Of a stretch of 64,000 bases of DNA, positions 14,401 to 31,355 are shown in pieces; positions within the stretch are counted from its first letter, which is position 1, and each line of letters begins with the position of its first letter. Origin of the DNA: an uncultured Alphaproteobacteria bacterium (GTDB lineage: Bacteria; Pseudomonadota; Alphaproteobacteria; CAAHEQ01; UBA3637). The notes under the pieces were generated by a model. That model saw nothing but the letters and a program-made list of their open reading frames with translations. It was not told the DNA's origin and did not search any database. The position numbers were made by a program, and so were the translations under genes. The stretch spans positions 1,810 through 65,809 of the forward strand of contig CALXWZ010000001.1 in the NCBI GenBank assembly GCA_944392555.1, in the 5' to 3' direction.

Positions 14401-14420
14401 CTCTTCATCCCATCCGGCAT

Positions 14421-15058: not shown

Positions 15059-16060
15059 TTATACCAAACCATTTCGACATAGTCGGGCATAAACCGGTTT
15101 AGTTAGGTCTAACTCTTCAACCAGTTCAACCGGGGTTTTGTTCACAGAAATTGCTGTGTTGGTTTCGACAACTGACTTGATAGTTTTGACTACGGCACTG
15201 GGAAGTTCGGAACGGCCGATGCAGGAGGAGAGATAAACAAAGCACTCGTCGTTATCTTCCAAATAACGGAGAGCTAACCTGCGAGCGTAGATATTTAATG
15301 TCACATCGGCCTTGCTGCCGTCTTTCGTCCAAGGGGAACCACCACCAATCGGACAGGCGGTAGAGTAAAAATCGCAGGCTAATTTGCGACCGGTAATGCC
15401 GCAGTCTGCGATGGAGGAATGTAATTTGAAACTTCCGGTGCCATTTACGATGATATTGTCAGGCTTTTCTCCGAGTACATCAATGATAAAATCTGTTAGA
15501 TCTTCCGGTTCTTTCATCGGAATTGCAACAACAGCCGTCTCAATGCGGCCGTAGTCGTTCAAGGTAATCTGTGTTTTTATATCAATGCCAAGGTTTTTAC
15601 TTTGGCGTGCCCGTATATAAAGGGCATTATTTAGAATACGGGCAAGATAAAGCTCTCGGTTTATCAAACCTTCGCCTTTACAGGCATAACCGATAAACAC
15701 GCCTTGATCACCCCAACCATTGGAAACAACGCCTTGATTTATGTCTGCTGATTGCTGACTGATGAGGTTGATGACTTCGATTTTGCGAACATCTATGGCA
15801 TTTTGTCCCCACACTTCGGCGTATTTTTCATCATAACCGATATCTCTCAGGGCATTTTTAACGAACTCTTTGACATCTGACAGGACAACTTTTCCTTTGA
15901 TTTCGCCTCCTAAAACGATGGTGTTGTCTTTGATCATCACCTCGACGGCATATTTGACGTCCGGGTCTTGGGCGATCATGCGGTCAAGGATATAACTGGA
16001 AATATAGTCAGCCGTTTTGTCCGGGTGTCCGAGCGAAACGAACTCTGCGGTTTTCTTCAT
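15059..16060 (-). CDS. short divergent S-adenosylmethionine synthetase (MetK-like, 333 aa)
   Basis: SLGHPDKTADYISSYILDRMIAQDP (GHPDK.AD.IS..ILD), QQSADINQGV, GDQGVFIGYA and GRKLACDFY align with conserved MetK blocks (GHPDKIAD, QSPDINQGV, GDQGLMFGYA, GRKIIVDTYGG). It is ~50 aa shorter than bacterial MetK. Confidence 0.7.
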   Translation of the reverse strand: MKKTAEFVSLGHPDKTADYISSYILDRMIAQDPDVKYAVEVMIKDNTIVLGGEIKGKVVLSDVKEFVKNALRDIGYDEKYAEVWGQNAIDVRKIEVINLISQQSADINQGVVSNGWGDQGVFIGYACKGEGLINRELYLARILNNALYIRARQSKNLGIDIKTQITLNDYGRIETAVVAIPMKEPEDLTDFIIDVLGEKPDNIIVNGTGSFKLHSSIADCGITGRKLACDFYSTACPIGGGSPWTKDGSKADVTLNIYARRLALRYLEDNDECFVYLSSCIGRSELPSAVVKTIKSVVETNTAISVNKTPVELVEELDLTKPVYARLCRNGLV

Positions 16061-16216
16061 AATTTCTCCTTTTTGCTTATAAAAAAAAGCCCGACAGATG
16101 AACTGCCGAGCCGGATACTATATGTAAAAATGTATAAACGGGACGATTGCATAGAACCATCCCGATTATACCCATAAATTACACCTAAAAAGGCAAAAGT
16201 GTAAAGCACAAAGATG

Positions 16217-16603
16217 TCAATGACATTTTTTAGGGATTTCACCGAATTGGATTTTGATGATTGCTTTGTCGTACCGGACAGCCAAAACCTGCCGAGAAAC
16301 GCCAAATTCCCGACATAAAAACTTCCAAGGTATCCGGTTAGCTCGCTTCCACACAATTCTGCGTTCCTCCTTTTCTAAAAGTGGAAGCCATACCAAAACA
16401 ACCATCTCCCATAGCCCGACTTGCTCTTGCGTTGGCCGGGGACGGATCGACCGCCTGTCCATAAAAGCTATTTCTTGGGCAGTGTAAACGATTTGTGGCA
16501 TAAAACACCGATATTTTGGTGAGCGGACCGGCGGCAACAGCCGTTCCACATAAGCGGCCGTTTCCAAGATATTTTTGATATCATCAACGCTCTTAACTTT
16601 CAT
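16217..16603 (-). CDS. phage regulatory protein-like (possible sigma-70 region-4-type HTH)
   Basis: C-terminal EERRIVWKRANRIPWKFLCREFGVSRQVLAVRYDKAI resembles an HTH. Lies in the phage-derived block. Confidence 0.3.
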   Translation of the reverse strand: MKVKSVDDIKNILETAAYVERLLPPVRSPKYRCFMPQIVYTAQEIAFMDRRSIRPRPTQEQVGLWEMVVLVWLPLLEKEERRIVWKRANRIPWKFLCREFGVSRQVLAVRYDKAIIKIQFGEIPKKCH

Positions 16604-17258
16604 GGTACACCGCCTTTACTTTTCCAAGCATATCTGCACACACGTCCGAGAAAGTCTCCATTTCACTGAGTGACAGTCCGTTTTCTTTGCAAAACCATTT
16701 TCGAACCGCTTTACGCCAGTCAACGGCAATATACTTCTTGCCATTCATCCAACCACGCTCTTCATGCCAACGCACAAAAGCTATCGGGTCAATCGCATAA
16801 CCACTTTCCTGTGCATAGGCCGCTACTTCCTCAACCGTTGGCGCACCGACATATTCCGACTTATCCACACAATCCGCCCCTTTATCTTTATCTCCATTAT
16901 CATATTCATTATCCGATTCATTCTCTTTCTCCGACTCACCCGTGTGGGGTAGTGGAACTTTTGCTTGATGGTTGCTTGAGCTTTGCTTGGATTTTGCTTG
17001 ACGTTTGCTTCCGCCTTTAGAACCATTTGCTTGGCGTTTTTCGCAGATTTCCTTATATTTGGCGTTGTTTTTATCAATAGTAGTTTGCAAAGTTTCTAAC
17101 CGCTTATTTACAACATCTGATAATTTTATGGATAGGTCGCCGTAATAATTTATTTCGCAAAGCGCAATTATTAAATCCGCTACCTGACTTTTTCGGAAGT
17201 TATGCACAGCTGACAAAAATTCCGCTGGAAAGAAAACAAAAGAATTTTTTCTATCCAT
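16593..17258 (-). CDS. phage replisome-organizer-like protein
   Basis: C-terminal TVEEVAAYAQESGYAIDPIAFVRWHEERGWMNGK resembles the conserved phage C-terminal domain found in replisome organizers. Acidic/low-complexity middle. Confidence 0.35.
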   Translation of the reverse strand: MDRKNSFVFFPAEFLSAVHNFRKSQVADLIIALCEINYYGDLSIKLSDVVNKRLETLQTTIDKNNAKYKEICEKRQANGSKGGSKRQAKSKQSSSNHQAKVPLPHTGESEKENESDNEYDNGDKDKGADCVDKSEYVGAPTVEEVAAYAQESGYAIDPIAFVRWHEERGWMNGKKYIAVDWRKAVRKWFCKENGLSLSEMETFSDVCADMLGKVKAVYHES

Positions 17259-17549
17259 TTAGTCCTCCTTTGTCAGATTCACGACCATGATAATTTGTTT
17301 TTTCGGTTTATTTCCGCCACCGCTTTGGTTGCTCAGCTTTTTGATGCGCATGATGCCTTGAATCCATTTAAGGGATAAAACGGCCAGACGGTACGCCTTA
17401 CTATTGTTTAGGCCAAACGCCTTCAACTGTTCAATTTCAAGTTTTACTTCTTTTTCCCAGTAGGACAGTTGGCGTTGATCGAACTCCAACATTTTTCCAA
17501 CGGGAATGGTTTTGATACATTCATAAATCGTTGTTTTTTGCTTTTTCAT
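17259..17549 (-). CDS. hypothetical small protein; its 5' leader carries the ~55-bp repeat
   Basis: 96-aa ORF with RBS AAAGGA upstream. Immediately downstream of the repeat at 17581..17636. Confidence 0.3.
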   Translation of the reverse strand: MKKQKTTIYECIKTIPVGKMLEFDQRQLSYWEKEVKLEIEQLKAFGLNNSKAYRLAVLSLKWIQGIMRIKKLSNQSGGGNKPKKQIIMVVNLTKED

Positions 17550-17580
17550 GACATTTAATCCTTTCGTTTCAGGTCATTAC

Positions 17581-17636
17581 GAAAGGTAAAAAGCCCGGAA
17601 GTCGATTTTTGCTCCCTCAAAAATGCAAAAAAATTT
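17581..17636. repeat. ~55-bp direct repeat, copy 1 (35-nt identical core AAAGGTAAAAAGCCCGGAAGTCGATTTTTGCTCCC); left boundary of the AT-rich cassette
   Basis: Near-identical to 25545..25600. Followed by the TTTGTAAC..ATTGATTTTTAAT motif at 17647..17672. Confidence 0.8.
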
Positions 17637-17898
17637 CAGCCATTTTGTAACTTATTGATTTTTAATAAACAAAAAATGTAAGAGAAACAACTTTTTAGGC
17701 CGATTTTTTGGATTGTCATAAAAGTTGTTCCTTTTACAAACTTCGTTGTTTAATTCAGCGTTTTTTTTGCTGGTGAAACTTTAATTGCAAATTACTTCAC
17801 CGCGTTTGTCAAAGTCGCAAAGTGTTAAAAGATGCGATTAAATAAACTTTTTTCGGGAATAAAACTTCACTCCAATCTGGCGAGGTTATTGTTTATGC

Positions 17899-18498
17899 CT
17901 AGAATATATCTGGTTTGGGTATCTTGATAAAATTTAAAATATTGTAGATATTTTCTATATCAGCTTTATCATTATCCCATAACAATGATTTACATCCTGC
18001 CTGAGAAGCGCAAAAAAAATCCGATTTAATGCTGTCCCCGATATGTAATATATCACCACAATTAATCGACATTTTTTCAGCACAATATTTAAAAAACAAG
18101 GGGTTTGGTTTTACAACACCAATTTCATTTGAATAAAAGAATGCAGATATAAAACTTAAGACATTTATAAAAGAAACTGTATTCTTTGAAAAACAATGCC
18201 TATTTGAGGCAATAATAATTTGATATCGATTATTTCTTAGCAAAGCAAATAATGAGCCAACAAATGGACGTAAGGGAGTAATTTTTTTATGGGCATAAAA
18301 ATTTTTTATATTTTGGATCTGATATTCTGTTAAGTACTTTAATAATAATTGTTCTTTTTTCAAGGAGTAATCTTTTGTTGTATAGATAATACTTTTTATT
18401 TCTTCTTTAAAAGGACTATCCTTTAAAAGGTTTTGCATAAAGCCTTTTTCTGTATCAATAAGTGTTCCACCAACATCAAAAGAAATGACTTTAACCAT
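17899..18498 (-). CDS. HAD-superfamily hydrolase
   Basis: N-terminal ISFDVGGTLID (motif I region), VKPNP (motif III Lys) and HIGDSIKSD (motif IV). 199 aa. Start abuts the stop of the upstream PHP gene. Confidence 0.65.
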   Translation of the reverse strand: MVKVISFDVGGTLIDTEKGFMQNLLKDSPFKEEIKSIIYTTKDYSLKKEQLLLKYLTEYQIQNIKNFYAHKKITPLRPFVGSLFALLRNNRYQIIIASNRHCFSKNTVSFINVLSFISAFFYSNEIGVVKPNPLFFKYCAEKMSINCGDILHIGDSIKSDFFCASQAGCKSLLWDNDKADIENIYNILNFIKIPKPDIF

Positions 18499-19656
18499 TT
18501 AATTCACTTTAAATATTTTGTTTTTTGCGTTGAAAATGTATCGTTCTAATTTATGCAGACTCATGTTATAAAACTCCAAATCATCGTAAACAGACTCATT
18601 TAAAGCATGCATATCTGAACCGATAATCTCGATTAACCCACAATCAGCAGAAAATTTTTCAAACTGAGATGGGCTATTGTACTTATTCTTATAATTTTTC
18701 TCAATACCTATCAATCCACCACCTATGGACAAAACATCCTTTACGAGAAACAACGCTTTCTCTGTCGGATGCGCAAATGAGGCGATACCGGATTGATTTA
18801 GTTCAAAAATTGAAGGCTGATTATATTCATTAACAGATAAACTACCGGATATAGGATAATCTGGAAACTTATCATCATCAAGACCTCTAACAGCTAATAT
18901 GGATAATAAAAATCGATTAGTTTCTTTTGATGTATTATCTGCATACTTTTTATCAAGAATCTGAAATCTTTTTTCTTTTATTGTTTTTCTCTGTTCGCAA
19001 GGATCAGTTAGATTATCCTTTTTTAATTGATCATATAATTCTGTATTGGATATTTTATATTTTTTTAATTTTTTGCTTATATACTCAATCAACGGCCAAT
19101 AATCAGGAAGAGTAATATGTTGCTCTTGTAAAAATTTAAGAAAATCAAACTCTGAAATTTCCGAAATATTATTTCCTAGTATTTTTTGTAGAGACACCGA
19201 ATGCTGTAACCTAGAAATTTGAATGCTTGCTCTATAAAAATATGAATTTTCTAGTTTTTTTATATCTTTTCTTAAATCTATGTCCATCGGATTAATAAAA
19301 TGTTTTAGAATATGGCACATTTCACCATAAACGGGATAACTAACAGTATGCTCTATTCCTGGAATTAAAATAGGAAAGGAATCTTCATGTAAAACGGGAT
19401 AAAATTTATCATATAACTCATCATAGGCTGAAACACTATCATGATCCGTTATACTTATTATTTCAAATTTCTTTTCTCGTGTGTTTTTTAAAATATCATA
19501 AATAGACTGGGAGGCATCTGATGAGTGATTAGAATGAATATGCCAATCAACTCGCACAAAAGACTCCTGCTTTAATCTCTTTTTTTTACATAATTCCTCA
19601 ATTTTAGCAATTGCCTTTTTGTTGTATTCGTCCCAAAAGGATATCTTGTTAGTCAT
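18499..19656 (-). CDS. PHP-domain metal-dependent phosphoesterase (385 aa)
   Basis: VRVDWHIHSNHSSDASQSIYDIL...ISITDHDSV is the canonical PHP motif I/II (D.H.H...S.D ... ITDHD). Start overlaps the GrpB stop (ATGA). Confidence 0.7.
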   Translation of the reverse strand: MTNKISFWDEYNKKAIAKIEELCKKKRLKQESFVRVDWHIHSNHSSDASQSIYDILKNTREKKFEIISITDHDSVSAYDELYDKFYPVLHEDSFPILIPGIEHTVSYPVYGEMCHILKHFINPMDIDLRKDIKKLENSYFYRASIQISRLQHSVSLQKILGNNISEISEFDFLKFLQEQHITLPDYWPLIEYISKKLKKYKISNTELYDQLKKDNLTDPCEQRKTIKEKRFQILDKKYADNTSKETNRFLLSILAVRGLDDDKFPDYPISGSLSVNEYNQPSIFELNQSGIASFAHPTEKALFLVKDVLSIGGGLIGIEKNYKNKYNSPSQFEKFSADCGLIEIIGSDMHALNESVYDDLEFYNMSLHKLERYIFNAKNKIFKVN

Positions 19657-20180
19657 ATTTTTGTACTTTTAGCTAAATTTAATACATGTTGAATAAACGC
19701 ATTTTTTTCAGCGGTGTATTTTTTCCTTTCATTTTTATACTGATCAGCGATACTTCTTTTTAGATTCTCATATTGCTGCGCGAATTTGGGATATTTTAAC
19801 AAATAATCTCTAAATAAAATGTGATTATTCCAATAAGTACTATTCAATACCTCCACATGAATATAATGTGTTCTGCAATTCGGCATTCCCTTCCTTGCTA
19901 AAATTTCGCCACATTTCTCTATAGAATCCAAAACATCATATCCGTTTTGTTGAAAAACAGGAATAAGTTTTTCCAATGTTTTTTCATCTTTAACTGCAAC
20001 AGCAATATCCAAAATCGGTTTAGCGCTAAGACCTGGGATAGACGTGCTTCCGACATGTTCAATAGATAAAGCGTCTTCTCCAAGAATTTCTTGTAGGAGC
20101 GTTTTTTCTTGCAAAAAAGCTTGGGGCCAATCTTTGCAATATGCTACTAATTCTACCTTGTCTTTGTGTAATCCTAGCAT
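19653..20180 (-). CDS. GrpB-family (UPF0157) nucleotidyltransferase-fold protein
   Basis: EHVGSTSIPGLSAKPILDIAV matches the GrpB hG[ST]...PGL.AKPIIDI nucleotidyltransferase motif. 175 aa. Confidence 0.7.
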   Translation of the reverse strand: MLGLHKDKVELVAYCKDWPQAFLQEKTLLQEILGEDALSIEHVGSTSIPGLSAKPILDIAVAVKDEKTLEKLIPVFQQNGYDVLDSIEKCGEILARKGMPNCRTHYIHVEVLNSTYWNNHILFRDYLLKYPKFAQQYENLKRSIADQYKNERKKYTAEKNAFIQHVLNLAKSTKI

Positions 20181-20289
20181 GGCATCCTCCTCATGTTATT
20201 AATATTGATCTAATTATAAAAAAAAACTTTATTTTTGCAATACGTTGTTATATAATTTTTTGAGTATTATGATTAATGGGGGAGTGCTG

Positions 20290-21171
20290 ATGATGGATTT
20301 ACATGTGCATAGTAGCGTTTCTGACGGCTCTTTCTGTCCGGAAGACTTGATACTTTATGCACAAATACATGGAATAACAACTCTGGCTATCGCAGATCAT
20401 GAAACAATTATTCATTATAACGAATATTCCCAGTTTGCAGATCATTTTAATATCACCCTTATCCCCGCTATAGAGATAAATGTTTCTGATTGTAAGAATT
20501 TACACATTTTGGGATATTATATTGAAAATAGAGCCCAATTGGAAGAAACTATATTAAAAATACGGAAAAAGAACCAGGAAATTTGCTACAATGTATTAGA
20601 ATCTTTAAAAAAAGAGTTCGGTATCAGCTTAAATCCACTTGAAACTGTTTCATATAGCCCAGACAGAATATTAGATAAGAAAGCCATTACAAAAGCCATA
20701 TTAAATCAAGGATATGCCACAAATGTTAAGGATGTATATGACAAATATATCGGTCCTGGAGCAAAATCATATATTCCTATAGAAAAAATGACAGCGCAAA
20801 AAGTTATTCAATTAATCCATGATAATAAAGGGGTTGCAGTATGGGCTCATCCATATACAATATCACGAGCAGATGGGAGTAGTATTATTGGCGCTGAGTT
20901 TGACCAAATGGCAAAGAAGCTTATAGATTATGGGATAGATGGTGTAGAAGTATTTACATCTAAACATTCTAAGGAGCAAACATCATACTTAGCCTCTTTA
21001 GCAAAAAGGAATAATCTTGTTGTTACAGGAGGATCTGATTTCCATTCAGAAGACGTCCATCAAATTGGATGCCCCGAGCTAACCCAAAAACATATCGAAA
21101 AGTTACAATTAAAGGCTCGACGTTATAATCGATTGTTTAATTTTCAACTACAAAATAGAAGTAGAGGCTAA
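20290..21171 (+). CDS. PHP-domain phosphoesterase, TrpH/YciV-like
   Basis: MMDLHVHSSVSDGSFCPEDLILYAQIHGITTLAIADHET matches TrpH-type PHP N-terminal motifs. RBS GGGGGAG precedes ATGATG. Divergent from the GrpB operon. Confidence 0.75.
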   Translation: MMDLHVHSSVSDGSFCPEDLILYAQIHGITTLAIADHETIIHYNEYSQFADHFNITLIPAIEINVSDCKNLHILGYYIENRAQLEETILKIRKKNQEICYNVLESLKKEFGISLNPLETVSYSPDRILDKKAITKAILNQGYATNVKDVYDKYIGPGAKSYIPIEKMTAQKVIQLIHDNKGVAVWAHPYTISRADGSSIIGAEFDQMAKKLIDYGIDGVEVFTSKHSKEQTSYLASLAKRNNLVVTGGSDFHSEDVHQIGCPELTQKHIEKLQLKARRYNRLFNFQLQNRSRG

Positions 21172-21172
21172 A

Positions 21173-21604
21173 ATGCATAAATACACCTTGTCTGATATAC
21201 AAAAATACTCAAAAAAATACCTTATCAATAAAGAGGATATTATATATATTTTATTGAATATTTTAGGGGTACGATGCAATACTAATATGCCTCGCATTAG
21301 AGCAAATATCAGATTGCAAGATAAATCTGAATATTTTTACTTTGGGCTAGCAAATAATCCCCATTCACCATTTCACTTAGAAAAAGGCAAAGTTTACTTC
21401 CAAAATGATAACATTGCTGAAATAAAAGGTATTGAAAACGATGATTGCGCTTCAAGCTATTTTAGGAGAAATAAAACAGTTCTAACAATTAATTCAAATA
21501 AACGTAGTAATTGCCGAGGCTGTCAATTTTGTCCCAATAATTTAGAATTGAATAGTGAAGATGAAAATCTCAACACAACAAGTAAGTTAAAAAAAACATT
21601 TTGA
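21173..21604 (+). CDS. hypothetical protein with C-x2-C-x2-C motif (N-terminal part of a gene split at an A7 tract)
   Basis: NCRGCQFCP cysteine motif. Stop TGA at 21602. Removing one A from the run 21590..21596 gives ...SKLKKHFEDILKEVQKEDLSFLERITICTGCF..., fusing it to the next ORF. Confidence 0.4.
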   Translation: MHKYTLSDIQKYSKKYLINKEDIIYILLNILGVRCNTNMPRIRANIRLQDKSEYFYFGLANNPHSPFHLEKGKVYFQNDNIAEIKGIENDDCASSYFRRNKTVLTINSNKRSNCRGCQFCPNNLELNSEDENLNTTSKLKKTF

Positions 21605-21635
21605 AGATATATTAAAAGAAGTCCAAAAGGAAGAT

Positions 21636-22244
21636 TTGTCGTTTTTAGAAAGGATTACAATTTGTACTGGTTGTTTTAAAAATGAGCAAGAAACCTTAGA
21701 TCATATTTTAATGGTTTACGATGTTGTAACAAGTCTTGCTTTCCCTGGTATCATTCATTATATCGGATCACAGATTCAAGCCCCAGATGCCTTCAAAAAA
21801 ATTCGAGAAACAATCCGTTATTTTATGTACACATTTACAATTGAATGCTTTTCAAAACGGCGACACATTTTAAGGCCATCTAAGGCAGAAATAACTCTAA
21901 ATAAATATAAAAGCCTCATGCGTTTGGCATTGGAAAATAGATTTATAGTTAATTATATATACATTTTAGGTATCGATTCTTTTTCTATTTTTCAAAAATA
22001 TACTCAAGAGTTTCGAGAATATACTAATTATTTCCCTTCTATAAATTTATTTCAGCCACATGAATTAAAACATTATACACTTTGTTCAAAAGATGCCAAT
22101 CGACTTGATTACTATTTAAAAAGCAGAGTTTTCTTAGAAAATATGTATGCAGATTCAAATATGTTTCCGGTCTCTTGGGAATGTTATCGTCCTTTATGGT
22201 ATTATACTTTTAAATCACAAAAAAACACTTCTATAAGGATTTAA
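21636..22244 (+). CDS. hypothetical protein (C-terminal part of the split gene; track start is TTG)
   Basis: No ATG; the frame is open back to 21591 and joins ORF 21173..21604 by a 1-nt slip at the A7 run. Contains ICTGCF. Confidence 0.4.
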   Translation: MSFLERITICTGCFKNEQETLDHILMVYDVVTSLAFPGIIHYIGSQIQAPDAFKKIRETIRYFMYTFTIECFSKRRHILRPSKAEITLNKYKSLMRLALENRFIVNYIYILGIDSFSIFQKYTQEFREYTNYFPSINLFQPHELKHYTLCSKDANRLDYYLKSRVFLENMYADSNMFPVSWECYRPLWYYTFKSQKNTSIRI

Positions 22245-22245
22245 T

Positions 22246-24264
22246 ATGGGACAAGATATTATTCTATTAAAAAAATACATAAAACTAGCAAATTACTTAA
22301 CAGTTTTGTGTATGTATTTAAAAAATAATTTTTTCTTGGAAAGACCTATAGATTTATCCGACATAAAAGAAAAGCCCACAGGACATTGGGGGAATGCCTC
22401 CCAAATCAATTTTTTGTATCCTCATATAAACTATTATATAAAACGGCATTCATTAAAAGATGTATCTTTAGTTATTGGAGCCGGTCATGCCGGCATTCCA
22501 TTCTTGATCAATACATTTTTAGATGGATCATTAGAACGTTTTTATGGTAAAAAGATGCCACTTCAAAAATTAATTATCAACTTTTCTGGTCCTTTAGGAT
22601 TTAGGAGTGAAATAAATCCAACTTATCCTGGGACTATTTATGCTGGTGGTGAATTAGGATATTCTCTTCCAACAGCCATGGGGTATCTTTTTAAGAATCC
22701 AAAGAAAACAATATTTTGTCTGGTTGGGGATGGGGAGGCTGAATCGGGTGGTATCGCTGCTTCATGGGATTATCCATATTTTTTAAAACCCAAAACAGAT
22801 GGGGTTCTTGTTCCTATTCTTAATTTAAATAAATTTAAAATGGGATCACCTTCATTATTTGCAAATTACACTCAAAAACAATTAAAGCATTTTTTTTCTA
22901 GCCATCGCTTGAAGGCATATTTTGTTTCAAAAAGACACATATCTTTTATAAAAACATTAGAAAAAATACATCAAGATATAATAAATTGGAGGAATGGTAC
23001 AAATCAATATTTACCAATTATTATCTTTTGTTCTATGAAAGGTGATGATGCCCCTGTTTTTTCAAAAGATGCAATACTAAACAGTTTAAAATCTCATAAA
23101 AACCCATTGCCCAATATATACCGAGATAGAGAAAAAATAAAATTATTAACTGCCTGGTTAGAAAAACATTTTTTGCCTGAATTTTCATCTTTTTCAAAAA
23201 TATCAAATCGGAACTTCAAGGAAATCTTGCCAAAGCCCGGATATACATTAGGTGATTTTCAGCCAACTAAAAATGTGCAAAAACCATTATTATTGAAACT
23301 AAATAAAAATACTTCTTGCTCTATTAAAGATATGGATACTATGATTAATCAATATGCGACCCAAAAGAAACTTTTAGTATTTTCTCCTGATGAACTGAAC
23401 TCTAACAAACTTACAAAAACAGCCTCATCTTCATATAGTTTTGAAATATTAAATGAACAAATTTGCCAAGCTTGGCTATTTGGAAATGCTATTGCTGGGA
23501 AAAAAGGTCTTTTATCAAGCTATGAAGGATTTATGCCTGTAATTGATAGTATGTTATTGCAGGTCATAAAATTTATAGAAGAACGAAAAAAAATAAAACA
23601 CCTTCCGCCTATACCCTCATTGAATTATATCCTAACGAGTGTATGGTGGGAAAATTGTTATTCACATCAAAATCCGGGTTTTATTTGTTCTGCTATTAAT
23701 TTTGGGTGTCCTTTTGTGGATATTCAATTTCCGATAGACACAACAAGTGCTGTTTTGGGGTTGCATAAAAACCTCAACACAACAAATAAAATCAATATTA
23801 TGTCTTTATCAAAAAGAGAACATTCTTGCATAATGTCACCCCAAAAAGCAAAAAAGCTTATTAAAAATGGTTTTTTGGAGTTCTATGATTCGCAAGATTT
23901 CAATTTAGTATTTTTTGTTATGGGGGATGCCCTATATGCAGAAGCAGAAAAAATTAGAAAAAGTTTAAAAAAACACAAAAAGATTTATTCTAAGATACTA
24001 TATTTTTATAATGTTTTTAGCTTAATTAATTTATCAGAAAAACAATTGGTTAAAATAACACAAAATAAGCATATTTTATTTTTCTTCCCAGGATACATAA
24101 ATGCGATAAAAGGAATTATGTTTAATAAAATATCAAAAGAAAAAATATCTTTTTACGGATATTCTAATAAATACATATCAGGAAACACTACGCAAAAAAT
24201 AGAAGCGAATGGTATAGCTTATAAAAATATAGTCAAAGAGCTTCAACATCTAAGATTGCTGTAA
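22246..24264 (+). CDS. divergent phosphoketolase-family (XFP-like) thiamine-diphosphate enzyme, 672 aa
   Basis: PTGHWGNASQINFLYPHINYYIKRH...LVIGAGHAGIPFLINTFLDGS...YPGTIYAGGELGYSLPTAMGY...IFCLVGDGEAESGGIAASWDY...DGVLVPILNLNKFKMGSPSLFA are collinear with the XFP N-terminal signature (GHWGTTPGLNFIYAHLNR...GPGHGGP...EGGELGYSL...VGDGEAETGPLA...DGAVLPILHLNGYKI). The C-terminal half is very divergent and ~120 aa shorter than canonical XFP. Confidence 0.65.
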   Translation: MGQDIILLKKYIKLANYLTVLCMYLKNNFFLERPIDLSDIKEKPTGHWGNASQINFLYPHINYYIKRHSLKDVSLVIGAGHAGIPFLINTFLDGSLERFYGKKMPLQKLIINFSGPLGFRSEINPTYPGTIYAGGELGYSLPTAMGYLFKNPKKTIFCLVGDGEAESGGIAASWDYPYFLKPKTDGVLVPILNLNKFKMGSPSLFANYTQKQLKHFFSSHRLKAYFVSKRHISFIKTLEKIHQDIINWRNGTNQYLPIIIFCSMKGDDAPVFSKDAILNSLKSHKNPLPNIYRDREKIKLLTAWLEKHFLPEFSSFSKISNRNFKEILPKPGYTLGDFQPTKNVQKPLLLKLNKNTSCSIKDMDTMINQYATQKKLLVFSPDELNSNKLTKTASSSYSFEILNEQICQAWLFGNAIAGKKGLLSSYEGFMPVIDSMLLQVIKFIEERKKIKHLPPIPSLNYILTSVWWENCYSHQNPGFICSAINFGCPFVDIQFPIDTTSAVLGLHKNLNTTNKINIMSLSKREHSCIMSPQKAKKLIKNGFLEFYDSQDFNLVFFVMGDALYAEAEKIRKSLKKHKKIYSKILYFYNVFSLINLSEKQLVKITQNKHILFFFPGYINAIKGIMFNKISKEKISFYGYSNKYISGNTTQKIEANGIAYKNIVKELQHLRLL

Positions 24265-25046
24265 AGCTAATTCAACATAATTTTCAAGTTCTTTATCGCT
24301 TTTTATTTCTTTTAGTTTTTGATTCAGTGCTATAGATATCTTCTGTGTATCTTCAGATATAATAATACATGGATAATTTGTTTTTTCATTGATTCCAAGA
24401 GCGGCAAGATGCCTAGTTCCATATCCCAGCTTCTTTTTCGTTTGGCTTAGGGGCAGGATAGTTCCGGCAGATTTTATTTTATTATTATTAATAACAATAG
24501 CCCCATCATGTAATGTGCTCTTTGGGTAGAAAATAGATAAAATGAGCTCATATGAAATTAATGCATTTAACTCAACCCCTTTATTTTCAAAAGCATAATG
24601 ATCATCATCATTTTGAAAGACTATTAATGCGCCGATTTTTTTTGCTGAAAATGTAGTAATGCTTTTATAATTTCTTGAGTATTTTGATTTTTTTCTATAT
24701 TTTTACATTTTTTCCTAGTTACAATAGATAGTATTCCATTCCCAAGTTTTTTAACTTTAGATATAAAAACAATCGAAAAATACTGAAATAACAGGAAATA
24801 TAATCCAATTTGGAAAAAGATCCATATATCAATAATAGAGGGCATATTATAACAAAGCGATAATATCTCAAGTAAAAGCAGCCCTAAAAACAGGAAAAGA
24901 TTTCCATAGATGACCTCTGTATCTGTTTTATTCTGTGAAAAAACTAAGCAAAGCACCACCGTAATCAAATAAAATATAAGGAGCGGAAATAATATTGTCA
25001 TATTGTCACCACTATATTTAACAAACAATACCTTTTCTATTATCAC
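24250..25046 (-). pseudogene. cdaA: CdaA-type membrane diadenylate cyclase (3 TM + DAC/DisA_N domain) interrupted by a frameshift at a T8 (A8 on coding strand) tract at 24636..24643
   Basis: Track ORF 24624..25046 encodes three predicted TM helices. In the +1 frame downstream (not listed in the track) the DAC domain reads KKIGALIVFQNDDDHYAFENKGVELNALISYELILSIFYPKSTLHDGAIVINNNKIKSAGTILPLSQTKKKLGYGTRHLAALGINEKTNYPCIIISEDTQKISIALNQKL, carrying canonical LHDGA, GTRHRAA and (I/V)VSEETG motifs. One extra A in the 8-A run restores a full ~265-aa CdaA. Converges on, and overlaps, the XFP-like gene by 15 nt. Confidence 0.7.
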
Positions 25047-25206
25047 ATAAAAAAAATAATTTCACAAGACCATTATTATATTTTAGAAATATAATACCAT
25101 CTTATTATCATTAAACAAATTCTAAATTTATTTTCTTAAAATTCCAAAAGAAATGTTTTAAATTCAAAATATCAAAAAATAAAAGCATTTCTTATCCCGA
25201 TATATT

Positions 25207-25404
25207 TCATAAAATAGTATAACGCAAAAACGGATATTTTAGAGCATAGGCAATACGCCCGATATAAAACTCTTTCTTTTGAACATCGCAATCAGTTCCA
25301 AAATAATGTTTCCATTGACGGCGAAGTTCGGAAAGAGGCAAAGTTTCTAATTGAGCAATTTTTAATGCTAATTCCATTTCAGACTCCTTCTTGGTTAACT
25401 TCAT
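25207..25404 (-). CDS. small protein, possibly DUF2924-like (family associated with serine-recombinase integrative elements)
   Basis: LPLSELRRQWKHYFG....KKEFYIGRIAYALKY resembles the LxELRxxxxxLFGE...RRIAWRLQ N-terminal pattern of DUF2924. Short (65 aa). A second 51-aa ORF (~25378..25530) lies just upstream and starts 15 nt after the direct repeat. Confidence 0.3.
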   Translation of the reverse strand: MKLTKKESEMELALKIAQLETLPLSELRRQWKHYFGTDCDVQKKEFYIGRIAYALKYPFLRYTIL

Positions 25405-25544
25405 TGTTATGAATGCTTGGATTTTTATTTATATCCAGTTCTTTCTCGATATATTTGTCTTTTTCTTGCGCTTCTAAAAACACTAAAAAATCAGCCAAAA
25501 TCAGTTTTACAAAATTTTCAATTTGGGTCATCTTGACCTCCTTT

Positions 25545-25600
25545 CAAAAGGTAAAAAGCCCGGAAGTCGATTTTTGCTCCCCAAAAAATGCAAAAAAAAT
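25545..25600. repeat. ~55-bp direct repeat, copy 2; right boundary of the AT-rich cassette
   Basis: 35-nt core identical to 17583..17617; overall ~93% identity over ~55 bp. Weaker similarity extends ~35 bp further (TTATAACTAATTGATTTTG vs TTGTAACTTATTGATTTTT). Confidence 0.8.
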
Positions 25601-25900
25601 TGGATTATTTTATAACTAATTGATTTTGCGTGATTAAAAATTAAAGTTCCCAACTACTGCCGTGAACTGCTTGATAGGATAGGAAAAAAAGAGAAGGCCT
25701 AAAAATGCGTTTTTAAAGTGTAGCAAGGTTTGACAGGTATATGTGACTGAAGTTCACTTGGCACATATCTGATAAGTATATTTTTTAACAGGAAAGTATA
25801 TGCTAAACGGAAATAATTGCGCGGTCACGAGTTATTCGGGCAAAAAACGTAGTCTTGAAAAGTGGCTGTCCTAGGGCTTTGTAGGGGAATAAGACAACAA

Positions 25901-25933
25901 AAAAAGCGGAAGTATATTCTTCCGCTTTTTTAT
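25901..25933. terminator. rho-independent terminator hairpin (GCGGAAG-tatatt-CTTCCGC) flanked by A-run and T-run, so potentially bidirectional
   Basis: aaaaaGCGGAAGtatattCTTCCGCttttttat. Confidence 0.55.
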
Positions 25934-26383
25934 ATTGGTCGGGTTGACCCACCAAAATCGAGAAAAAGATACCACTTTTTTAGCGCACAAAATTGAGGAC
26001 CATCTTTTCCTTATTTTATAAGGCTTTTGGGCACATTTTCAAAACGCAGAGGGCAACAGTTCTAATCCGCACTGGTGGGGTTGACCTTCGGTTGCGAACC
26101 TCAAAGATAACACATTGATTTTTAATAAAAAGATACTTGTAGATTGCTTTTAATGCACAATTTGATATCAAAAGATAGGAACTCTTTTGAGTTCCTATCT
26201 ACTAAACTACTTCCTAATTTTTATTGGGAAAGCAGTCCTTCCATATTGGCTAGCATAAATACGCCGGCCTTTTATGGTTATCCACTTTACGAAACGAATT
26301 TCGTATTCATGGTCTAAAGGATATTTTGACATTTTTTACTCCTTTAAAATGTTCCCTACATTTAACAATCTTATCAAAGTTCT

Positions 26384-26498
26384 TGACAAGCTACCTAAAA
26401 AGGAGTAAATTATTCCTGTCGTGGATCCTTTTTAGTGACACCTAGTAGTAGGTTTGACTAGAATGATTCTTGAAAGGCTGTTATTGACGTAACGGCCT
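26384..26498 (+). ncRNA. candidate small RNA: sigma70-like promoter (TTGACA-17-TAAATT) followed ~55 nt later by a terminator hairpin with T-run
   Basis: TTGACAagctacctaaaaaggagTAAATT at 26384..26412. Hairpin AGGCTGTT-attgacgt-AACGGCCT followed by TTTTTTATT at 26463..26498. No ORF >9 codons between them. Lies in a 900-bp ORF-free region. Confidence 0.25.
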
Positions 26499-26501
26499 TT
26501 T

Positions 26502-27071
26502 TTATTGCCAATTAGGTTTCTTTAGCTTTTGCCTCCTTGTCTCTGCTGCGGAGCGTGACACTCCACATGAATTACATATTTCTTGTGTACTCATTTCCTT
26601 AACAATTTCATACGGCATTAAAAATTCTGCGGCAAAAACATCAGCTTGCCATTCTGCATCTCTCCATGTTTCCAATGGCCTTGGAAGATACTGCATAAGA
26701 CGTGCAAAAGGAGCATCCTCTTTATGCCTTAAAAAAAGATGACCTAATTCGTGAGCGATAGTGAATCTAGATAGACCATCTCCTTCACAAGCTTTATTAT
26801 AAACGCTTTCTTTGATACGAATAATCTGCTCTTGTGGAAATGTCTCTGCAAATTTTCCCTTTAAAAGTGGATCGCTATCAGATACAATTTCATACGCGTA
26901 GTCAGGTAAAAAGGTTGAGCCAAAATATTCTAATATTTGAACAATATCACAATAAGCGCAATTTCTTATCCCAAATATATCCCTTAATTTAGTCGCAATC
27001 ATACGAATTTCACGAATTCGTTTTGGAGGAACAGGGACTCCTTTACTTCTTATTGTACCAAAACTAGTCAT
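26502..27071 (-). CDS. ImmA/IrrE-family zinc metallopeptidase
   Basis: FTIAHELGHLFLRHKEDAPFARL carries HEXXH plus the downstream conserved region typical of ImmA/IrrE (COG2856). Immediately downstream of, and overlapping, an XRE HTH gene. Confidence 0.75.
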   Translation of the reverse strand: MTSFGTIRSKGVPVPPKRIREIRMIATKLRDIFGIRNCAYCDIVQILEYFGSTFLPDYAYEIVSDSDPLLKGKFAETFPQEQIIRIKESVYNKACEGDGLSRFTIAHELGHLFLRHKEDAPFARLMQYLPRPLETWRDAEWQADVFAAEFLMPYEIVKEMSTQEICNSCGVSRSAAETRRQKLKKPNWQ

Positions 27072-27447
27072 CAGTTTTATTCTCCAAAATTTCTTTAATT
27101 GCTTTTTGTTGTTCATCTGTTAATTCGTTAATTTTACGAGCAAAACTGTATGCCAAAGACTGTATTTCGGCATTAGGAACATCAATTTTTATATGTACCT
27201 TATCTTTGTTCTTTAATTCTTCTTCTCGCGTTTTTTCAATTGCATTTTCAAGGGCAGAAATTTGCTCTTTTGAAAGTGGATAATGTTTTACCAACCGATC
27301 TATGAAGTTTACGGGTATGCTTTTCTTGCCTGTTTCAATAGCAGACAAGAAAGAAGAGGAAAGCTCCAGCGTTTTACTCATATCATATAATTTGATACCT
27401 AACATAATCCGAAATGTTTTTAACCATTTTCCAAATTCTGTATTCAT
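27064..27447 (-). CDS. XRE-family helix-turn-helix transcriptional regulator
   Basis: LKTFRIMLGIKLYDMSKTLELSSSFLSAIETGKKSIP is a classic XRE/Cro-C1 HTH. Paired with ImmA. Confidence 0.75.
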   Translation of the reverse strand: MNTEFGKWLKTFRIMLGIKLYDMSKTLELSSSFLSAIETGKKSIPVNFIDRLVKHYPLSKEQISALENAIEKTREEELKNKDKVHIKIDVPNAEIQSLAYSFARKINELTDEQQKAIKEILENKTDD

Positions 27448-27657
27448 TCTGTGTCTCCTTTCGACTACAAAACAGATTCTAGACTAAAATCAAACAAAAG
27501 TCAACCTATTTTGTAAAAAAAATTCACCTATCGGTTAATTTTTTTTGTAACGAATTGATTTTTAATGAAAATATTTATTAAATTTTTCATATTTTAGTTG
27601 ATTTTTATGTTTTTTTGAGCGTTATAGTTATCTGAATTATCTGAAACGGAGGTCAAA

Positions 27658-27840
27658 ATGTCAGAGAAAACGGAAAAGCTTGTTCATATCATCTTACCGG
27701 ATTTGTTAAATTATCTGAAAACGGTGGAAAGTGGGGAGATTATCAAAAAACGTCTTGAAAAAAATAATCTGCTTGCGTATAAGGAAGAAAAAACTAATGA
27801 AATTGATAATGTTAATCAGAAAACAACGAAAAATATATAA
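27658..27840 (+). CDS. small hypothetical protein (60 aa) with strong RBS, immediately upstream of the R-M genes
   Basis: acGGAGGtcaaaATG. No HTH recognisable; charged and helical. Could be a leader or controller element of the restriction operon. Confidence 0.35.
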   Translation: MSEKTEKLVHIILPDLLNYLKTVESGEIIKKRLEKNNLLAYKEEKTNEIDNVNQKTTKNI

Positions 27841-27910
27841 GATTTTTTATAAATCACTTGCAAAACTATTCAATTTTGTGTCTAATACACAAAGTATAGG
27901 AGATATCAAT

Positions 27911-31261: not shown

Positions 31262-31267
31262 ATGTAT

Positions 31268-31344: not shown

Positions 31345-31355
31345 TTTATCCCACT

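Follow-up and report, generated by a model that had tools for sequence, protein, structure and literature searches.

One of the enzymes encoded in the DNA analysed here belongs to the phosphoketolase family, in whose described members His142 accelerates the dehydration step (residue roles: PMC6435721, PMC10547157). A second enzyme adopts the fold of radical-SAM enzymes and carries a CxxCxxC cysteine spacing, for which no characterised radical-SAM precedent was found in the literature; viperin is among its structural matches, although it is no closer than HydG, MqnE or LipA. No paper was found on the gene set to which both belong, PADLOC matched 0 of the seven cassette proteins, and none reached a curated NCBIfam equivalog cut-off, in line with the initial annotation, which had called the combination undescribed. 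The window (the whole stretch of DNA analysed, 64,000 nucleotides) contains the following cassette genes.

17899..18498, minus strand: HAD-IA phosphatase, 199 aa (Pfam HAD_2 and Hydrolase), part of the universal three-gene core
18499..19656, minus strand: PHP phosphoesterase PHP-385, 385 aa, with a long insertion (Pfam PHP, E = 2.8e-7)
19653..20180, minus strand: GrpB (UPF0157) nucleotidyltransferase-fold protein, 175 aa (Pfam GrpB, E = 2.3e-45)
20269..21171, plus strand: TrpH/YciV-like PHP phosphoesterase (PHP-300), 293-300 aa (Pfam PHP)
21173..22244, plus strand: variant radical-SAM-fold enzyme with CxxCxxC, a core gene, frameshifted and split into 21173-21604 and 21636-22244
22246..24264, plus strand: divergent phosphoketolase-family ThDP enzyme, 672 aa (XFP_N, E = 4e-69; XFP, E = 6e-31), a core gene
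24250..25001, minus strand: divergent membrane-anchored diadenylate cyclase (DAC) gene (DAC, E = 2.2e-35), frameshifted, 250 aa if T9

Cargo in place of a prophage recombinase module

All ORFs lie where the initial annotation had placed them, and Pfam and NCBIfam profile searches confirmed its domain calls. The ATGA-type overlaps that it described in the minus-strand operon apply to GrpB and PHP-385 (4 nt) but not to PHP-385 and HAD, which abut (overlap 0). It had further described the segment as AT-richer than its surroundings, bounded by direct repeats of about 55 bp and probably acquired as a unit. The compositional contrast is real on the left, where GC falls from 44.1% in the phage backbone (13.0-17.6 kb) to 29.9% in the cassette, but no such step occurs at the right repeat, beyond which the DNA is likewise AT-rich (33.2% GC over 25.6-31.3 kb), and the window holds two further low-GC blocks (1-2.6 kb and 9.3-12.6 kb). 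The following features lie at the two ends of the cassette.

17574..17675, no strand: left copy of a duplicated upstream element, 5' of a 96-aa phage gene (17259-17549)
25207..25404, minus strand: 5' fragment of a DUF2924 gene, 65 aa, at the right breakpoint of the replacement
25379..25531, minus strand: phage ORF of 50 aa that opened the former recombinase operon, a homologue of a 57-aa ORF in L105
25539..25640, no strand: right-hand copy of this upstream element, where the prophage ends on the right

The two repeat copies are identical at 83/102 positions overall (17574-17675 vs 25539-25640) and at 53/57 in their core, and they share an exact 35-mer (2 occurrences vs 0 expected by chance); a third, weaker copy occurs at ~27486-27574. 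Each copy immediately precedes the start of a minus-strand gene, and in the cassette-free phages L104 and L105 the element stands ahead of the homologous 96-103-aa gene. Cassette-free relatives carry two copies ~2.99 kb apart that flank a DUF2924/serine-recombinase module, in the order tRNA-Pro, repeat, 57 aa, DUF2924 (135 aa), recombinase (566-568 aa), 166-169 aa, repeat, 96-103 aa and 221 aa. An origin of the repeats as insertion scars was rejected because these relatives have the same two copies. The "bounding" repeats are an upstream element, a promoter or 5' leader, that the phage itself has in duplicate, and their position at the ends of the cassette is therefore a matter of geometry and not evidence of insertion as a unit. 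The repeats themselves and the foreign origin of the cargo stand, whereas their role as borders made by acquisition does not.

The left cassette breakpoint is in or beside the left repeat copy; homology to L100 begins at window position 17605. On the right, the DUF2924 fragment shares 70% identity with residues 1-47 of its 135-aa counterpart in L100, and homology ends after about residue 56; in relatives the DUF2924 gene is followed by the 566-568-aa serine recombinase. What the cargo replaced is the 3' end of DUF2924 together with the genes for the large serine recombinase and the 166-aa protein. Homology to L001, which lies at a different chromosomal site, stops at 25640. The cassette coding sequence shows at most 10 substitutions in ~7 kb between copies that sit in three different backbones and at two chromosomal sites, and none of its genes was found in 17 related viral contigs. 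Hence the stretch at ~17.68-25.24 kb of the window is horizontally acquired cargo that replaces part of a degraded prophage. With its recombinase and most of its terminase lost (the latter is cut down to its last 84 aa), the prophage is defective and unable to package DNA.

The comparisons support the description of the block as AT-rich cargo of foreign origin that sits among prophage and R-M genes. The cargo lies beside an ImmA/HTH pair and a type I M+S pair, and the prophage that carries it has a second cargo block with a thymidylate kinase, a NUDIX gene and a nucleoside-phosphorylase-like gene. Two DNA methylases and a SAM synthetase homologue also occur in this phage context. Searches for cassette regulation found no riboswitch, and promoter or terminator signals did not rise above chance.

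A conserved set of six genes

The CxxCxxC protein, 356 aa when intact (A7 in the A tract), has an AF2 model with a pLDDT of 91. Its Foldseek matches at E <= 0.001 are radical-SAM enzymes without exception, and its three invariant cysteines sit in the loop behind the first barrel strand, while Pfam Radical_SAM gives an E value of only 0.12. On the strength of the model, this protein is a variant radical-SAM enzyme, for which SAM cleavage is predicted. Among 1.84 billion proteins the family has 376 representatives, which makes it rare. One of its members is labelled 'predicted nucleic acid-binding protein' by JGI.

The XFP-like protein falls under every NCBIfam phosphoketolase cut-off (at most 376 bits vs cut-offs of at least 777). 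In its subfamily His142 is replaced by Glu in 63/63 sequences (Glu122 in the window protein) and Gln546 and His548 are deleted, whereas His64, His97, Gly155, His320, Glu479, Tyr501, Asn549 and His553 are retained. From these residues we infer that cofactor activation and the phosphate site are preserved in the enzyme, without the dehydration helper His142 and without His548. The HAD protein scores 48.1 against TIGR01549 (cut-off 23.3). The longest ORF of the TrpH-like PHP gene runs from 20245 (TTG), and the start used here is that called in L001 and L002; its NCBIfam matches to 3',5'-nucleoside bisphosphate phosphatase (E = 1.6e-39) and RNase RNM (E = 1.3e-33) are both below cut-off.

The census covered 80 related loci, and the counts given here come from the 62 in which each flank extends for at least 5 kb. 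A ThDP gene accompanies the radical-SAM-like gene in 59/62; 55 of these are XFP-like and 4 are split enzymes resembling sulfopyruvate/phosphonopyruvate decarboxylases. The XFP-like gene adjoins the radical-SAM-like gene in 55/62 loci, and a HAD gene lies within 10 kb of it in 58/62. The variant radical-SAM enzyme, the ThDP enzyme and the HAD phosphatase thus form an invariant core. GrpB (11/62) and PHP (10/62) are a recurrent accessory layer; GrpB and two PHP proteins accompany the core mainly in Firmicutes and Bacteroidota, and GrpB/PHP are missing from most loci (actinomycetes, CPR bacteria, archaea). Fusions link this layer to the core: GrpB is the N-terminal part of 518-531-aa proteins that also contain the radical-SAM-like enzyme, and in P0084 a PHP domain 42% identical to PHP-385 over 364 aa is C-terminal to the XFP-like enzyme.

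In L112, the closest relative, the same divergent two-operon layout occurs without HAD, and the radical-SAM enzyme is 56% identical to that of the window. The same families are found in L007, L008, L009, L010, L015, L030, L032, L053 and L113, and Sellimonas intestinalis and Treponema lecithinolyticum also have a cluster of this kind. Six cassette genes (HAD, PHP-385, GrpB, PHP-300, CxxCxxC radical-SAM-fold and XFP-like ThDP) are therefore a compact version of a widespread uncharacterised set, and their co-localisation elsewhere is strongly borne out.

The seventh gene is different. The initial annotation had counted a CdaA-type cyclase as part of the combination; the DAC domain is real, but the gene is outside the conserved set (0/62 loci). 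Its product scores 154 against TIGR00159 (CdaA cut-off 188.8) and has a strongly hydrophobic N-terminal stretch of 83 residues, its best other homologues are only 35-37% identical, and a cdaR-glmM context is absent. At least 14 contigs carry an intact allele (P0268). As an addition confined to one lineage, the DAC gene is a passenger separate from the set.

A predicted small-molecule pathway and its alternatives

The enzyme set probably makes a small molecule, each chemical step being read from folds and neighbours. It would build a small phosphorylated intermediate that is released dephosphorylated. The ThDP enzyme may make or transfer a C2 unit (glycolaldehyde- or acyl-type) rather than acetyl phosphate, and the variant radical-SAM enzyme may act by radical chemistry at a C-H or C-C bond or by adenosylation. 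GrpB would nucleotidylate the intermediate, and the PHP and HAD enzymes would strip phosphate or nucleotide esters. Because nucleotide-handling neighbours recur (NUDIX, Ham1 or adenosine-deaminase genes in several loci), the data suggest a nucleoside- or sugar-phosphate-derived specialised metabolite, such as an antimetabolite, antibiotic or signal. This nucleotide theme may fit one sub-variant only, since most loci are without GrpB/PHP.

Most relatives, in Streptomyces, Clostridia, CPR bacteria and DPANN archaea, are surrounded by genes that resemble a biosynthetic cluster or by plain chromosome. Larger relatives extend the set: L008, L110 and L111 add a PP-binding protein, GT28/UDPGT, methyltransferases, extra radical-SAM enzymes, BtrH_N, a carbamoyltransferase and ABC exporters, and a Streptomyces operon has an enolase-superfamily gene, a methyltransferase, creatininase, PhyH, YrdC and a permease. 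We lean, by a narrow balance of probability, towards the joint reading that the cargo replaced part of the prophage, carries a biosynthetic set and is switched by slippage.

A prophage and R-M address had led the initial annotation to propose defence or anti-defence cargo. Under such a reading, which we regard as possible though unlikely, the set would serve anti-phage defence or superinfection exclusion, with the radical-SAM enzyme making a toxic or chain-terminating nucleotide analogue as prokaryotic viperins do, kinase, phosphatase and nucleotidyltransferase partners tuning the pool, and the prophage carrying a module that protects its host. The address itself is real, with the ImmA/HTH and type I M+S pairs next to the cargo. 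L112 adjoins a complete type I R-M system, a NUDIX gene and two Ham1-like NTP house-cleaning genes, and L113 a 1422-aa TIR-TPR protein; the viperin match, the second cargo block and homopolymer switches, which are typical of costly accessory functions, fit as well. However, viperin ranks no closer than the other radical-SAM matches, PADLOC matched none of the seven proteins, no sensor or effector component is evident, and the operons of most relatives, with methyltransferases, glycosyltransferases, carriers, exporters and permeases, have the look of metabolite production and not of immunity.

Phosphoketolases work in catabolism, phosphatases of the HAD and PHP types are frequent in salvage routes, and the set is found in small-genome, salvage-reliant CPR and DPANN organisms. 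A pathway for catabolism or salvage of an unusual sugar or nucleoside could be drawn from this, in which phosphatases and the nucleotidyltransferase feed a phosphoketolase homologue that splits a ketose phosphate, to the nutritional advantage of the lysogen in the gut. We think it improbable: the core has no conserved transporter, kinase or isomerase partner, the dehydration-accelerating His142 and also His548 are gone, the ThDP partner in CPR/DPANN loci is of the decarboxylase and not the ketolase type, and the associated glycosyltransferases, methyltransferases, carriers and exporters are anabolic.

Slightly less credence still goes to synthesis of a modified base or nucleotide that is put into phage or host DNA or RNA. 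The phage methylases, SAM synthetase homologue, thymidylate kinase and NUDIX gene are compatible with it, as are the JGI name and the RNA methyltransferases and aminoacyl-tRNA synthetases among the CPR/DPANN neighbours. Against this, nearly all family members are non-phage, the radical-SAM, XFP-like, PHP-385 and DAC proteins have no PHROG match, glycosylase, transglycosylase and polymerase partners are not conserved, and the prophage cannot package DNA.

Homopolymer tracts and intact alleles

The preferred reading includes slippage, in which A7/A8 and T9/T8 changes would toggle expression of the radical-SAM and DAC genes.

21589..21596, plus strand: A8 homopolymer breaking the radical-SAM-like gene (intact state A7)
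24636..24643, plus strand: T8 homopolymer (A8 on the mRNA) breaking the DAC gene (intact state T9)

Both genes are interrupted, as had been reported for tracts given as A7 and T8; the A tract is in fact A8, and A7 is its intact state. A8 occurs in the window, L004 and L005 and A7 in L001-L003, L006 and L114-L117, while T8 is shared by the window and L001-L005 and T9 by L114-L117.

These frameshifts, the loss of recombinase and most of the terminase from the prophage, and the low GC of donor-like loci (23-36%) might indicate an inert chromosomal fragment of ordinary housekeeping genes, transferred from a low-GC organism and decaying in a dead prophage. To this we assign the smallest probability of all. 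The genes are not housekeeping orthologues, XFP-like and DAC proteins both falling under their cut-offs; the set is kept together across phyla, with members joined in fusion proteins; and both broken genes have intact alleles. Apart from the frameshifts, no disabling mutation was seen in any cassette copy of the three lineages, and the substitutions between them are few, as noted above.

The intact A7 and T9 alleles sit in contigs that are 99.6-100% identical, so both frameshifts are recent and reversible-looking, which strengthens the ON/OFF interpretation offered originally. The run lengths were called as consensus from different samples, and their differences could reflect ordinary mutation between lineages instead of rapid phase variation. 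Between L006 and the window, the A-tract indel is the sole difference over 3.6 kb; with the radical-SAM gene broken in the window, the pathway would be OFF here.

Cassette genes and the prophage that carries them

The cassette genes lie on both strands of the AT-rich segment, and the ORF map agrees with the gene list of the initial annotation, whose family calls were every one upheld by Pfam and NCBIfam.

Cassette genes (position in the window, strand, gene and basis)
17899-18498, minus: HAD phosphatase (Pfam/NCBIfam family call)
18499-19656, minus: PHP protein, 385 aa (Pfam/NCBIfam family call)
19653-20180, minus: GrpB (Pfam GrpB, 155 bits, profile positions 1-157 of 159)
ending at 21171, plus: TrpH-like PHP (Pfam/NCBIfam family call)
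21173-21604 and 21636-22244, plus: CxxCxxC protein, in two pieces (ORF map)
22246-24264, plus: XFP-like protein, 672 aa (XFP_N and XFP Pfam domains)
24250-25001, minus: DAC-domain gene, in two pieces, convergent with the XFP-like gene (PF02457 after repair)

The Pfam domain spans the full length of GrpB, which belongs to the UPF0157 family. The proposal that this combination of genes is new also stands: full-text literature searches gave no account of the gene cluster or its families, and the seven cassette proteins had no matches to the defence-system models of PADLOC-DB 2.0 (E <= 0.01). An Rfam search of 16.5-27.8 kb found no riboswitch and thus no clue to a ligand, and a scan for promoters and terminators was uninformative, returning counts equal to the shuffled expectation.

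A compositional step had been expected at both ends of the cassette. It is present on the left, where the cassette (29.9% GC) meets phage genes of 44.1% GC, and absent on the right, where the next 5.6 kb have 33.2% GC; further low-GC blocks occur outside the cassette at 1-2.6 kb and 9.3-12.6 kb. The two direct repeats, 17574-17675 and 25539-25640, are real (83 of 102 positions identical, 53 of 57 in the core, and an exact 35-mer found twice versus never in shuffled sequence). They are not, as first proposed, the borders of the cassette, since cassette-free relatives already carry both of them around a recombinase module. In three such phages (L100, L104 and L105) the order is tRNA-Pro, repeat, a 57-aa ORF, DUF2924 (135 aa), a large serine recombinase (566-568 aa), a 166-169-aa gene, repeat, a 96-103-aa gene and a 221-aa gene; in phages of this type the two repeat copies are about 2.99 kb apart, each just 5' of a start codon. 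The repeats thus belong to the phage itself, as a duplicated upstream element, and did not arise by insertion. Their presence in these relatives rules out att sites or insertion scars, and the cassette has no recombinase that would make it an element delimited by att repeats. A structured RNA was also ruled out (folding z-scores of about 0 to -1.3, no Rfam match). The exact repeat core was not found in IMG/VR, and a megablast of 1-25 kb against GenBank phages gave no match.

Because the cassette-free relatives have the repeats flanking the recombinase module, and because the DUF2924 gene is cut in the window, ending after about residue 56, we conclude that the cassette replaced this module. 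The right breakpoint is located about 300 bp inward of the right repeat, and on the left side homology to L100 starts at 17605. The cassette genes were absent from all 17 related viral contigs.

Contigs encoding exactly the same XFP-like protein delimit the prophage. Three of them (L001-L003) match 16066-25640, stop at the end of the right repeat and then run on into another chromosomal site, which has tRNA-Pro(tgg), rplM and rpsI. Four others (L114-L117) match 17316-25870 and resume at 31268-40324, a region carrying tRNA-Pro(cgg), an ABC transporter and MlaC/MlaA. From these limits of homology, the prophage ends at about 25640, and 25871-31267 is a separate islet found in the window only. On three prophage backbones, sharply diverged to its left, the cassette retains 99.5-99.7% identity (17316-25640 compared with L001 and L114): left of 17316 there is no megablast match in L114, and L001 is only 92.8% identical over 13279-14893. 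This pattern suggests recent exchange of the cassette between related prophages by recombination. The large terminase is cut down to its last 84 residues (12903-13367), 98% identical to residues 564-647 of the 647-aa gene of L100, so the prophage is otherwise dead and unable to package DNA. About 4 kb that lie between the ParB-methylase and terminase genes in relatives are missing from the window.

Like phage morons and other att-end cargo, the cassette occupies the att-proximal end of a prophage near tRNA-Pro as an AT-rich accessory block, beside further cargo (R-M genes and a nucleotide-metabolism block). It differs in having replaced the integration module rather than adding to it, in a host prophage that is no longer self-mobile, and in being more than 99.5% identical on three diverged backbones. 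As a form of moron carriage, cargo in place of the integrase module is unusual.

Homopolymer states and the diadenylate cyclase

The CxxCxxC and DAC genes are both split at homopolymers, as initially reported; the first tract was given as A7 and is A8 in the window. Contigs L114-L117 have A7 and T9, with both genes intact, L001-L003 have A7 and T8, with the DAC gene broken, and the window, L004 and L005 have A8 and T8, with both broken. A further contig, L006, has A7, its span ending short of the T tract, and the A-run indel is its sole difference from the window over 3.6 kb. In-frame run length thus differs among contigs that are 99.5-100% identical (A7/A8 and T9/T8, as read from consensus assemblies), the pattern of a phase-variable locus. 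Across the three lineages, about 7 kb of coding sequence hold at most 10 substitutions, too few for dN/dS to be informative, and no other lesion.

The T8 tract in all of L001-L005 had pointed to a fixed DAC pseudogene, a reading overturned by the intact T9 allele: P0268, a natural 250-aa protein identical to the repaired DAC, occurs on at least 14 contigs. Switching and decay had both been offered as explanations of the split genes. Intact alleles and the lack of other lesions fit slippage-driven ON/OFF switching better than decay, judging from the aligned alleles, and simple lineage mutations could also account for the differences. The OFF allele might be leaky. The mRNA of the T8 allele (24630-24650, minus strand) reads CA-A-AAA-AAA-TCG, which places an A_AAA_AAA heptamer in the zero frame, where a -1 ribosomal shift or transcriptional slippage might restore the DAC.

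In the window itself the DAC frame is broken by the T8 frameshift, as in L001-L005. The repaired protein, equal to the natural allele P0268, matches PF02457 at E = 2.2e-35 and falls short of the TIGR00159 equivalog score (154.2 versus a cut-off of 188.8). Like CdaA, it carries the HDGA and GTRH motifs in a DAC domain that follows a hydrophobic N-terminal membrane region. It is highly divergent, with 35-37% identity to the closest CdaA, occurs in this cassette lineage alone and, unlike most listed CdaA homologues, has no CdaA_N (PF19293) match. Its gene lies beside the XFP-like gene and phage remnants and not in a cdaA-cdaR-glmM context; it further differs from cdaA in being carried by a prophage of a probably alphaproteobacterial host and in its putative switch, a T8/T9 tract.

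The host is probably an uncultured gut alphaproteobacterium. The members of the 90% identity cluster of the portal protein (7625-9040) are named from 'Alphaproteobacteria bacterium' MAGs, and the locus is flanked by MlaA and MlaC genes. GC content and promoter-like motifs had suggested a Bacteroidales host instead, which the naming of the portal cluster led us to reject. Diadenylate cyclases are unusual in that alphaproteobacterial group.

Two divergent enzymes of the cassette

The CxxCxxC protein (356 aa when intact) belongs to a rare family: only 59 homologue clusters were found among 5.8 billion proteins, and an exhaustive profile search recovered 376 representatives. Source annotations of the protein read 'hypothetical' or 'radical SAM protein'. 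In an alignment of 42 sequences four cysteines are invariant, C114, C117 and C120, which form a CX2CX2C motif, and C167. The AF2 model (pLDDT 91) matched radical-SAM enzymes exclusively in Foldseek at E <= 0.001, and we therefore assign the protein a radical-SAM fold, a partial or full TIM barrel. By sequence it stays outside the superfamily models, scoring 12.9 bits against PF04055 (Radical_SAM; E = 0.12, cut-off 29.5) and 20 bits against NF045502 (cut-off 125), and a sequence search of solved structures gave no match. The protein is, as modelled, a radical-SAM-fold enzyme in which CX2CX2C replaces the canonical CX3CX2C, and a candidate for [4Fe-4S] cluster binding and reductive SAM cleavage.

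Two groups of radical-SAM enzymes invite comparison. With the full-barrel group of HydG, ThiH, NosL, MqnE, PylB, BioB and LipA, the protein shares a three-Cys loop after the first barrel strand. It is set apart by its CX2CX2C motif, its own N-terminal helix/beta domain of about 100 residues, an invariant fourth Cys in a TGCF motif and its separate, very small family. The second group modifies nucleotides: prokaryotic viperins (pVips) produce ddhNTPs, and PolH/NikJ, TunB, OxsB and MqnE act on or add nucleosides. As in these systems, a radical-SAM fold is here combined with nucleotide-handling enzymes (an NTase, nucleotide phosphoesterases, and NUDIX and Ham1 neighbours), in this case on a prophage. 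The protein is unlike viperins in having no sequence membership among them (PADLOC finds nothing), and the ThDP partner and HAD phosphatase of the cassette set are not known from any of those systems.

That ThDP partner, the XFP-like protein, scores above the gathering thresholds of XFP_N (233.6 bits) and XFP (108 bits), below that of XFP_C (19.4 versus 23.4) and below the cut-offs of all six NCBIfam phosphoketolase models (at best 376 bits versus 777). It shares the fold and the XFP_N-XFP domain order of Bifidobacterium XFPK (PDB 3AHC), is about 120 aa shorter, with a weak XFP_C only, and is 29-39% identical to annotated phosphoketolases. Active sites were aligned to 3AHC, whose chain numbering equals native numbering plus 20. 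The phosphoketolase active site comprises His64, His97, His142, Gly155, His320, Glu479, Tyr501, Gln546, His548, Asn549 and His553 (PMC10547157, PMC6435721), and eight of these persist (His64, His97, Gly155, His320, Glu479, Tyr501, Asn549 and His553). Shared with XFPK are thus the GDGE ThDP-binding motif, the activating Glu479, the four histidines and the Pi-site pair Tyr501 and Asn549. His142 is replaced by Glu122, and Gln546-Asp-His548 is lost through a 3-residue deletion. The change at His142 and the loss of Gln546/His548 recur in 98-100% of 63 cluster-associated sequences, with Glu at position 142 in 63 of 63, whereas canonical-length phosphoketolases (n = 10) retain the canonical residues.

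In phosphoketolase, His142 speeds dehydration of the dihydroxyethyl-ThDP intermediate (PMC6435721). Judged by its scores and residues, the ThDP enzyme of the cassette departs from ordinary phosphoketolases; it probably retains its cofactor chemistry and phosphate site, and the route forming acetyl phosphate is probably altered. Its setting also departs from that of XFPK, with the gene beside that of the radical-SAM-like protein instead of acetate kinase or pentose-pathway genes, and with the enzyme sometimes fused to PHP or preceded by a carrier protein. Its best sequence match was PDB 9CD3, for which a literature search found one paper, on a synthetic cell-free C1 pathway, and nothing that ties the entry to this cluster.

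The carrier protein recalls another use of ThDP. In naphthyridinomycin and quinocarcin biosynthesis, a transketolase/E1-like enzyme and an ACP make glycolicacyl-S-ACP. Larger Clostridia clusters similarly have a PP-binding carrier gene directly upstream of the XFP-like gene, an arrangement in which, by analogy, a ThDP-bound C2 unit could well be passed to a thiol. The parallel is limited in that the enzyme is phosphoketolase-like, not transketolase/E1, that neither the window cassette nor its closest relative L112 has a carrier protein, and that assembly-line genes are absent.

The enzyme set in other genomes and a possible pathway

A genome scan placed relatives of the radical-SAM-like protein in 181 species of Firmicutes, Bacteroidota, many actinomycetes, Treponema lecithinolyticum, Gammaproteobacteria, Saccharibacteria and other CPR, and DPANN archaea. 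Neighbours within 10 kb were counted with iterated profiles (jackhmmer) at 62 loci with at least 5 kb on both flanks. A ThDP enzyme of some type occurs at 59/62 loci (XFP-like at 55, a split N/C type at four) and HAD at 58/62. GrpB (11/62) and PHP (10/62) are less frequent. The diadenylate cyclase, which had been counted as part of the combination, is at none of the 62 loci, and we rejected it as a member of the conserved set.

The ThDP gene usually adjoins the radical-SAM-like gene on the same strand. By its scores the split type resembles sulfopyruvate/phosphonopyruvate decarboxylases; two DPANN/Saccharibacteria loci (L090, 6775-7829; L091, 10086-11161) pair it with the radical-SAM-like gene. 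The alpha subunit of L090 exceeds the TIGR03845 cut-off, and PEP mutase and coenzyme-M genes are absent nearby at both.

The closest relative of the cassette, L112, has the same two divergent operons without the HAD gene. Elsewhere GrpB is fused to the N terminus of the radical-SAM-like protein (518-531 aa, 49-56% identical to the window protein), and in P0084 a PHP of the 385-aa type is joined to the C terminus of the XFP-like enzyme. The layout of L112 and these fusions argue that the cassette proteins act together. The surroundings of L112 and of a second close relative, L113, resemble defence islands: L112 (1-7069 and 13437-16553) carries a full type I R-M system, a P4 cII-like gene, a Beta_protein gene, a NUDIX gene and two Ham1-like genes, and L113 (14637-18905) a 1422-aa TIR_2-TPR protein and a Band_7 gene.

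Wider loci combine the core of radical-SAM-like, ThDP and HAD genes with different partners. Three Clostridia clusters (L008, L110 and L111), in which the carrier gene lies directly upstream of the XFP-like gene, add GT28/UDPGT glycosyltransferases, methyltransferases, further radical-SAM enzymes, BtrH_N, a carbamoyltransferase, an adenosine-deaminase-family gene and ABC exporters. A Streptomyces operon (L071) and a related metagenomic one (L092) comprise HAD, radical-SAM, XFP-like, enolase-superfamily, HAD, methyltransferase, creatininase-family, PhyH, YrdC-like and permease genes, and in CPR and DPANN organisms the operon joins the radical-SAM gene to methyltransferases and the split ThDP decarboxylase, HAD being present in some cases only. 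Nucleotide-handling neighbours recur (GrpB, TrpH-like PHP, NUDIX, Ham1-like and HD genes). The set fits a biosynthetic module making a building block that is tailored differently by lineage.

We sketch the following route. The ThDP enzyme could generate or transfer a C2 unit from a phosphorylated keto substrate, and the variant radical-SAM enzyme could perform a radical C-H or C-C step or an adenosyl addition. GrpB might nucleotidylate an intermediate, and PHP and HAD might remove phosphate or nucleotide esters, freeing a product that in the prophage could serve competition, immunity or signalling. Taken together, replacement of the recombinase module, the conserved set, the divergent ThDP enzyme, the wider contexts and this sketch form a picture that we hold with moderate confidence; the specific chemistry that we infer is, on its own, much less certain. 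A more ambitious reading, which we regard as rather unlikely, is that the core of CX2CX2C radical-SAM protein, His142-to-Glu ThDP enzyme and HAD would constitute an unrecognised pathway across bacteria and archaea, making a new class of nucleoside- or sugar-phosphate-derived metabolites by radical and ThDP C2 chemistry. In the prophage its minimal version would then provide a weapon or an immunity function that can be switched, in the form of an antimetabolite or nucleotide analogue, toggled by slippage along with a phage-borne c-di-AMP synthase. The host lineage is not normally known for c-di-AMP signalling.

Each superfamily by itself is known. Apparently undescribed are the CX2CX2C radical-SAM family, the phosphoketolase subfamily with Glu in place of His142, and the pairing of both with a HAD phosphatase. 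They offer testable enzymology, in the form of a compact radical-SAM family with a noncanonical CX2CX2C cluster motif and a phosphoketolase subfamily systematically without two active-site histidines, the two being paired in at least 181 species that range from Streptomyces to DPANN archaea. From the fusions and from the six genes of the minimal phage version it can be seen which proteins work jointly and how few suffice, and cultured carriers exist (Sellimonas intestinalis, Treponema lecithinolyticum and many Streptomyces and Kitasatospora strains). For phage biology, the cassette is metabolic cargo in place of an integration module, common to diverged backbones and probably gated by homopolymers. 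If bioactive, its product would represent a new natural-product class in gut bacteria.

Other accessory genes lie around the cassette. Between the terminase remnant and the portal gene, a second cargo block (9276-12622, 30.5% GC) encodes a 525-aa pyrimidine-nucleoside/AMP-phosphorylase-like protein, a NUDIX hydrolase, an AAA_18 P-loop protein and a thymidylate kinase, and may be functionally tied to the nucleotide theme of the cassette. A short SAM-synthetase homologue (15059-16060, 333 aa, phrog_1569) of backbone-like GC lies near the radical-SAM cassette; in L114 a MetK homologue is immediately next to a 94-aa gene, and in L001 a DprA gene and a 319-aa gene take its place. The GFO/IDH/MocA-family oxidoreductase at 1259-2242, near the tail genes in the low-GC stretch 1-2.6 kb (32.7% GC), is probably another cargo gene, and the family also occurs at the edge of the large Clostridia cluster L111. 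The 221-aa phage gene contains an 11-nt-periodic direct repeat (TTTTGCTTGA-like; 16959-17017), which encodes a low-complexity Lys/Gln/Ser-rich stretch. Beyond the prophage, the 5.4-kb islet 25871-31267 adjoins the 3' end of tRNA-Pro(cgg) (31268-31344) and is absent from L114-L117, which are 99.1-99.7% identical on either side. It encodes an ImmA/IrrE M78 peptidase, an HTH regulator, a 686-aa N6 DNA methylase and a type I S subunit, without an R subunit or integrase, and a weak third copy of the upstream element (about 27486-27574) lies 5' of its HTH gene.
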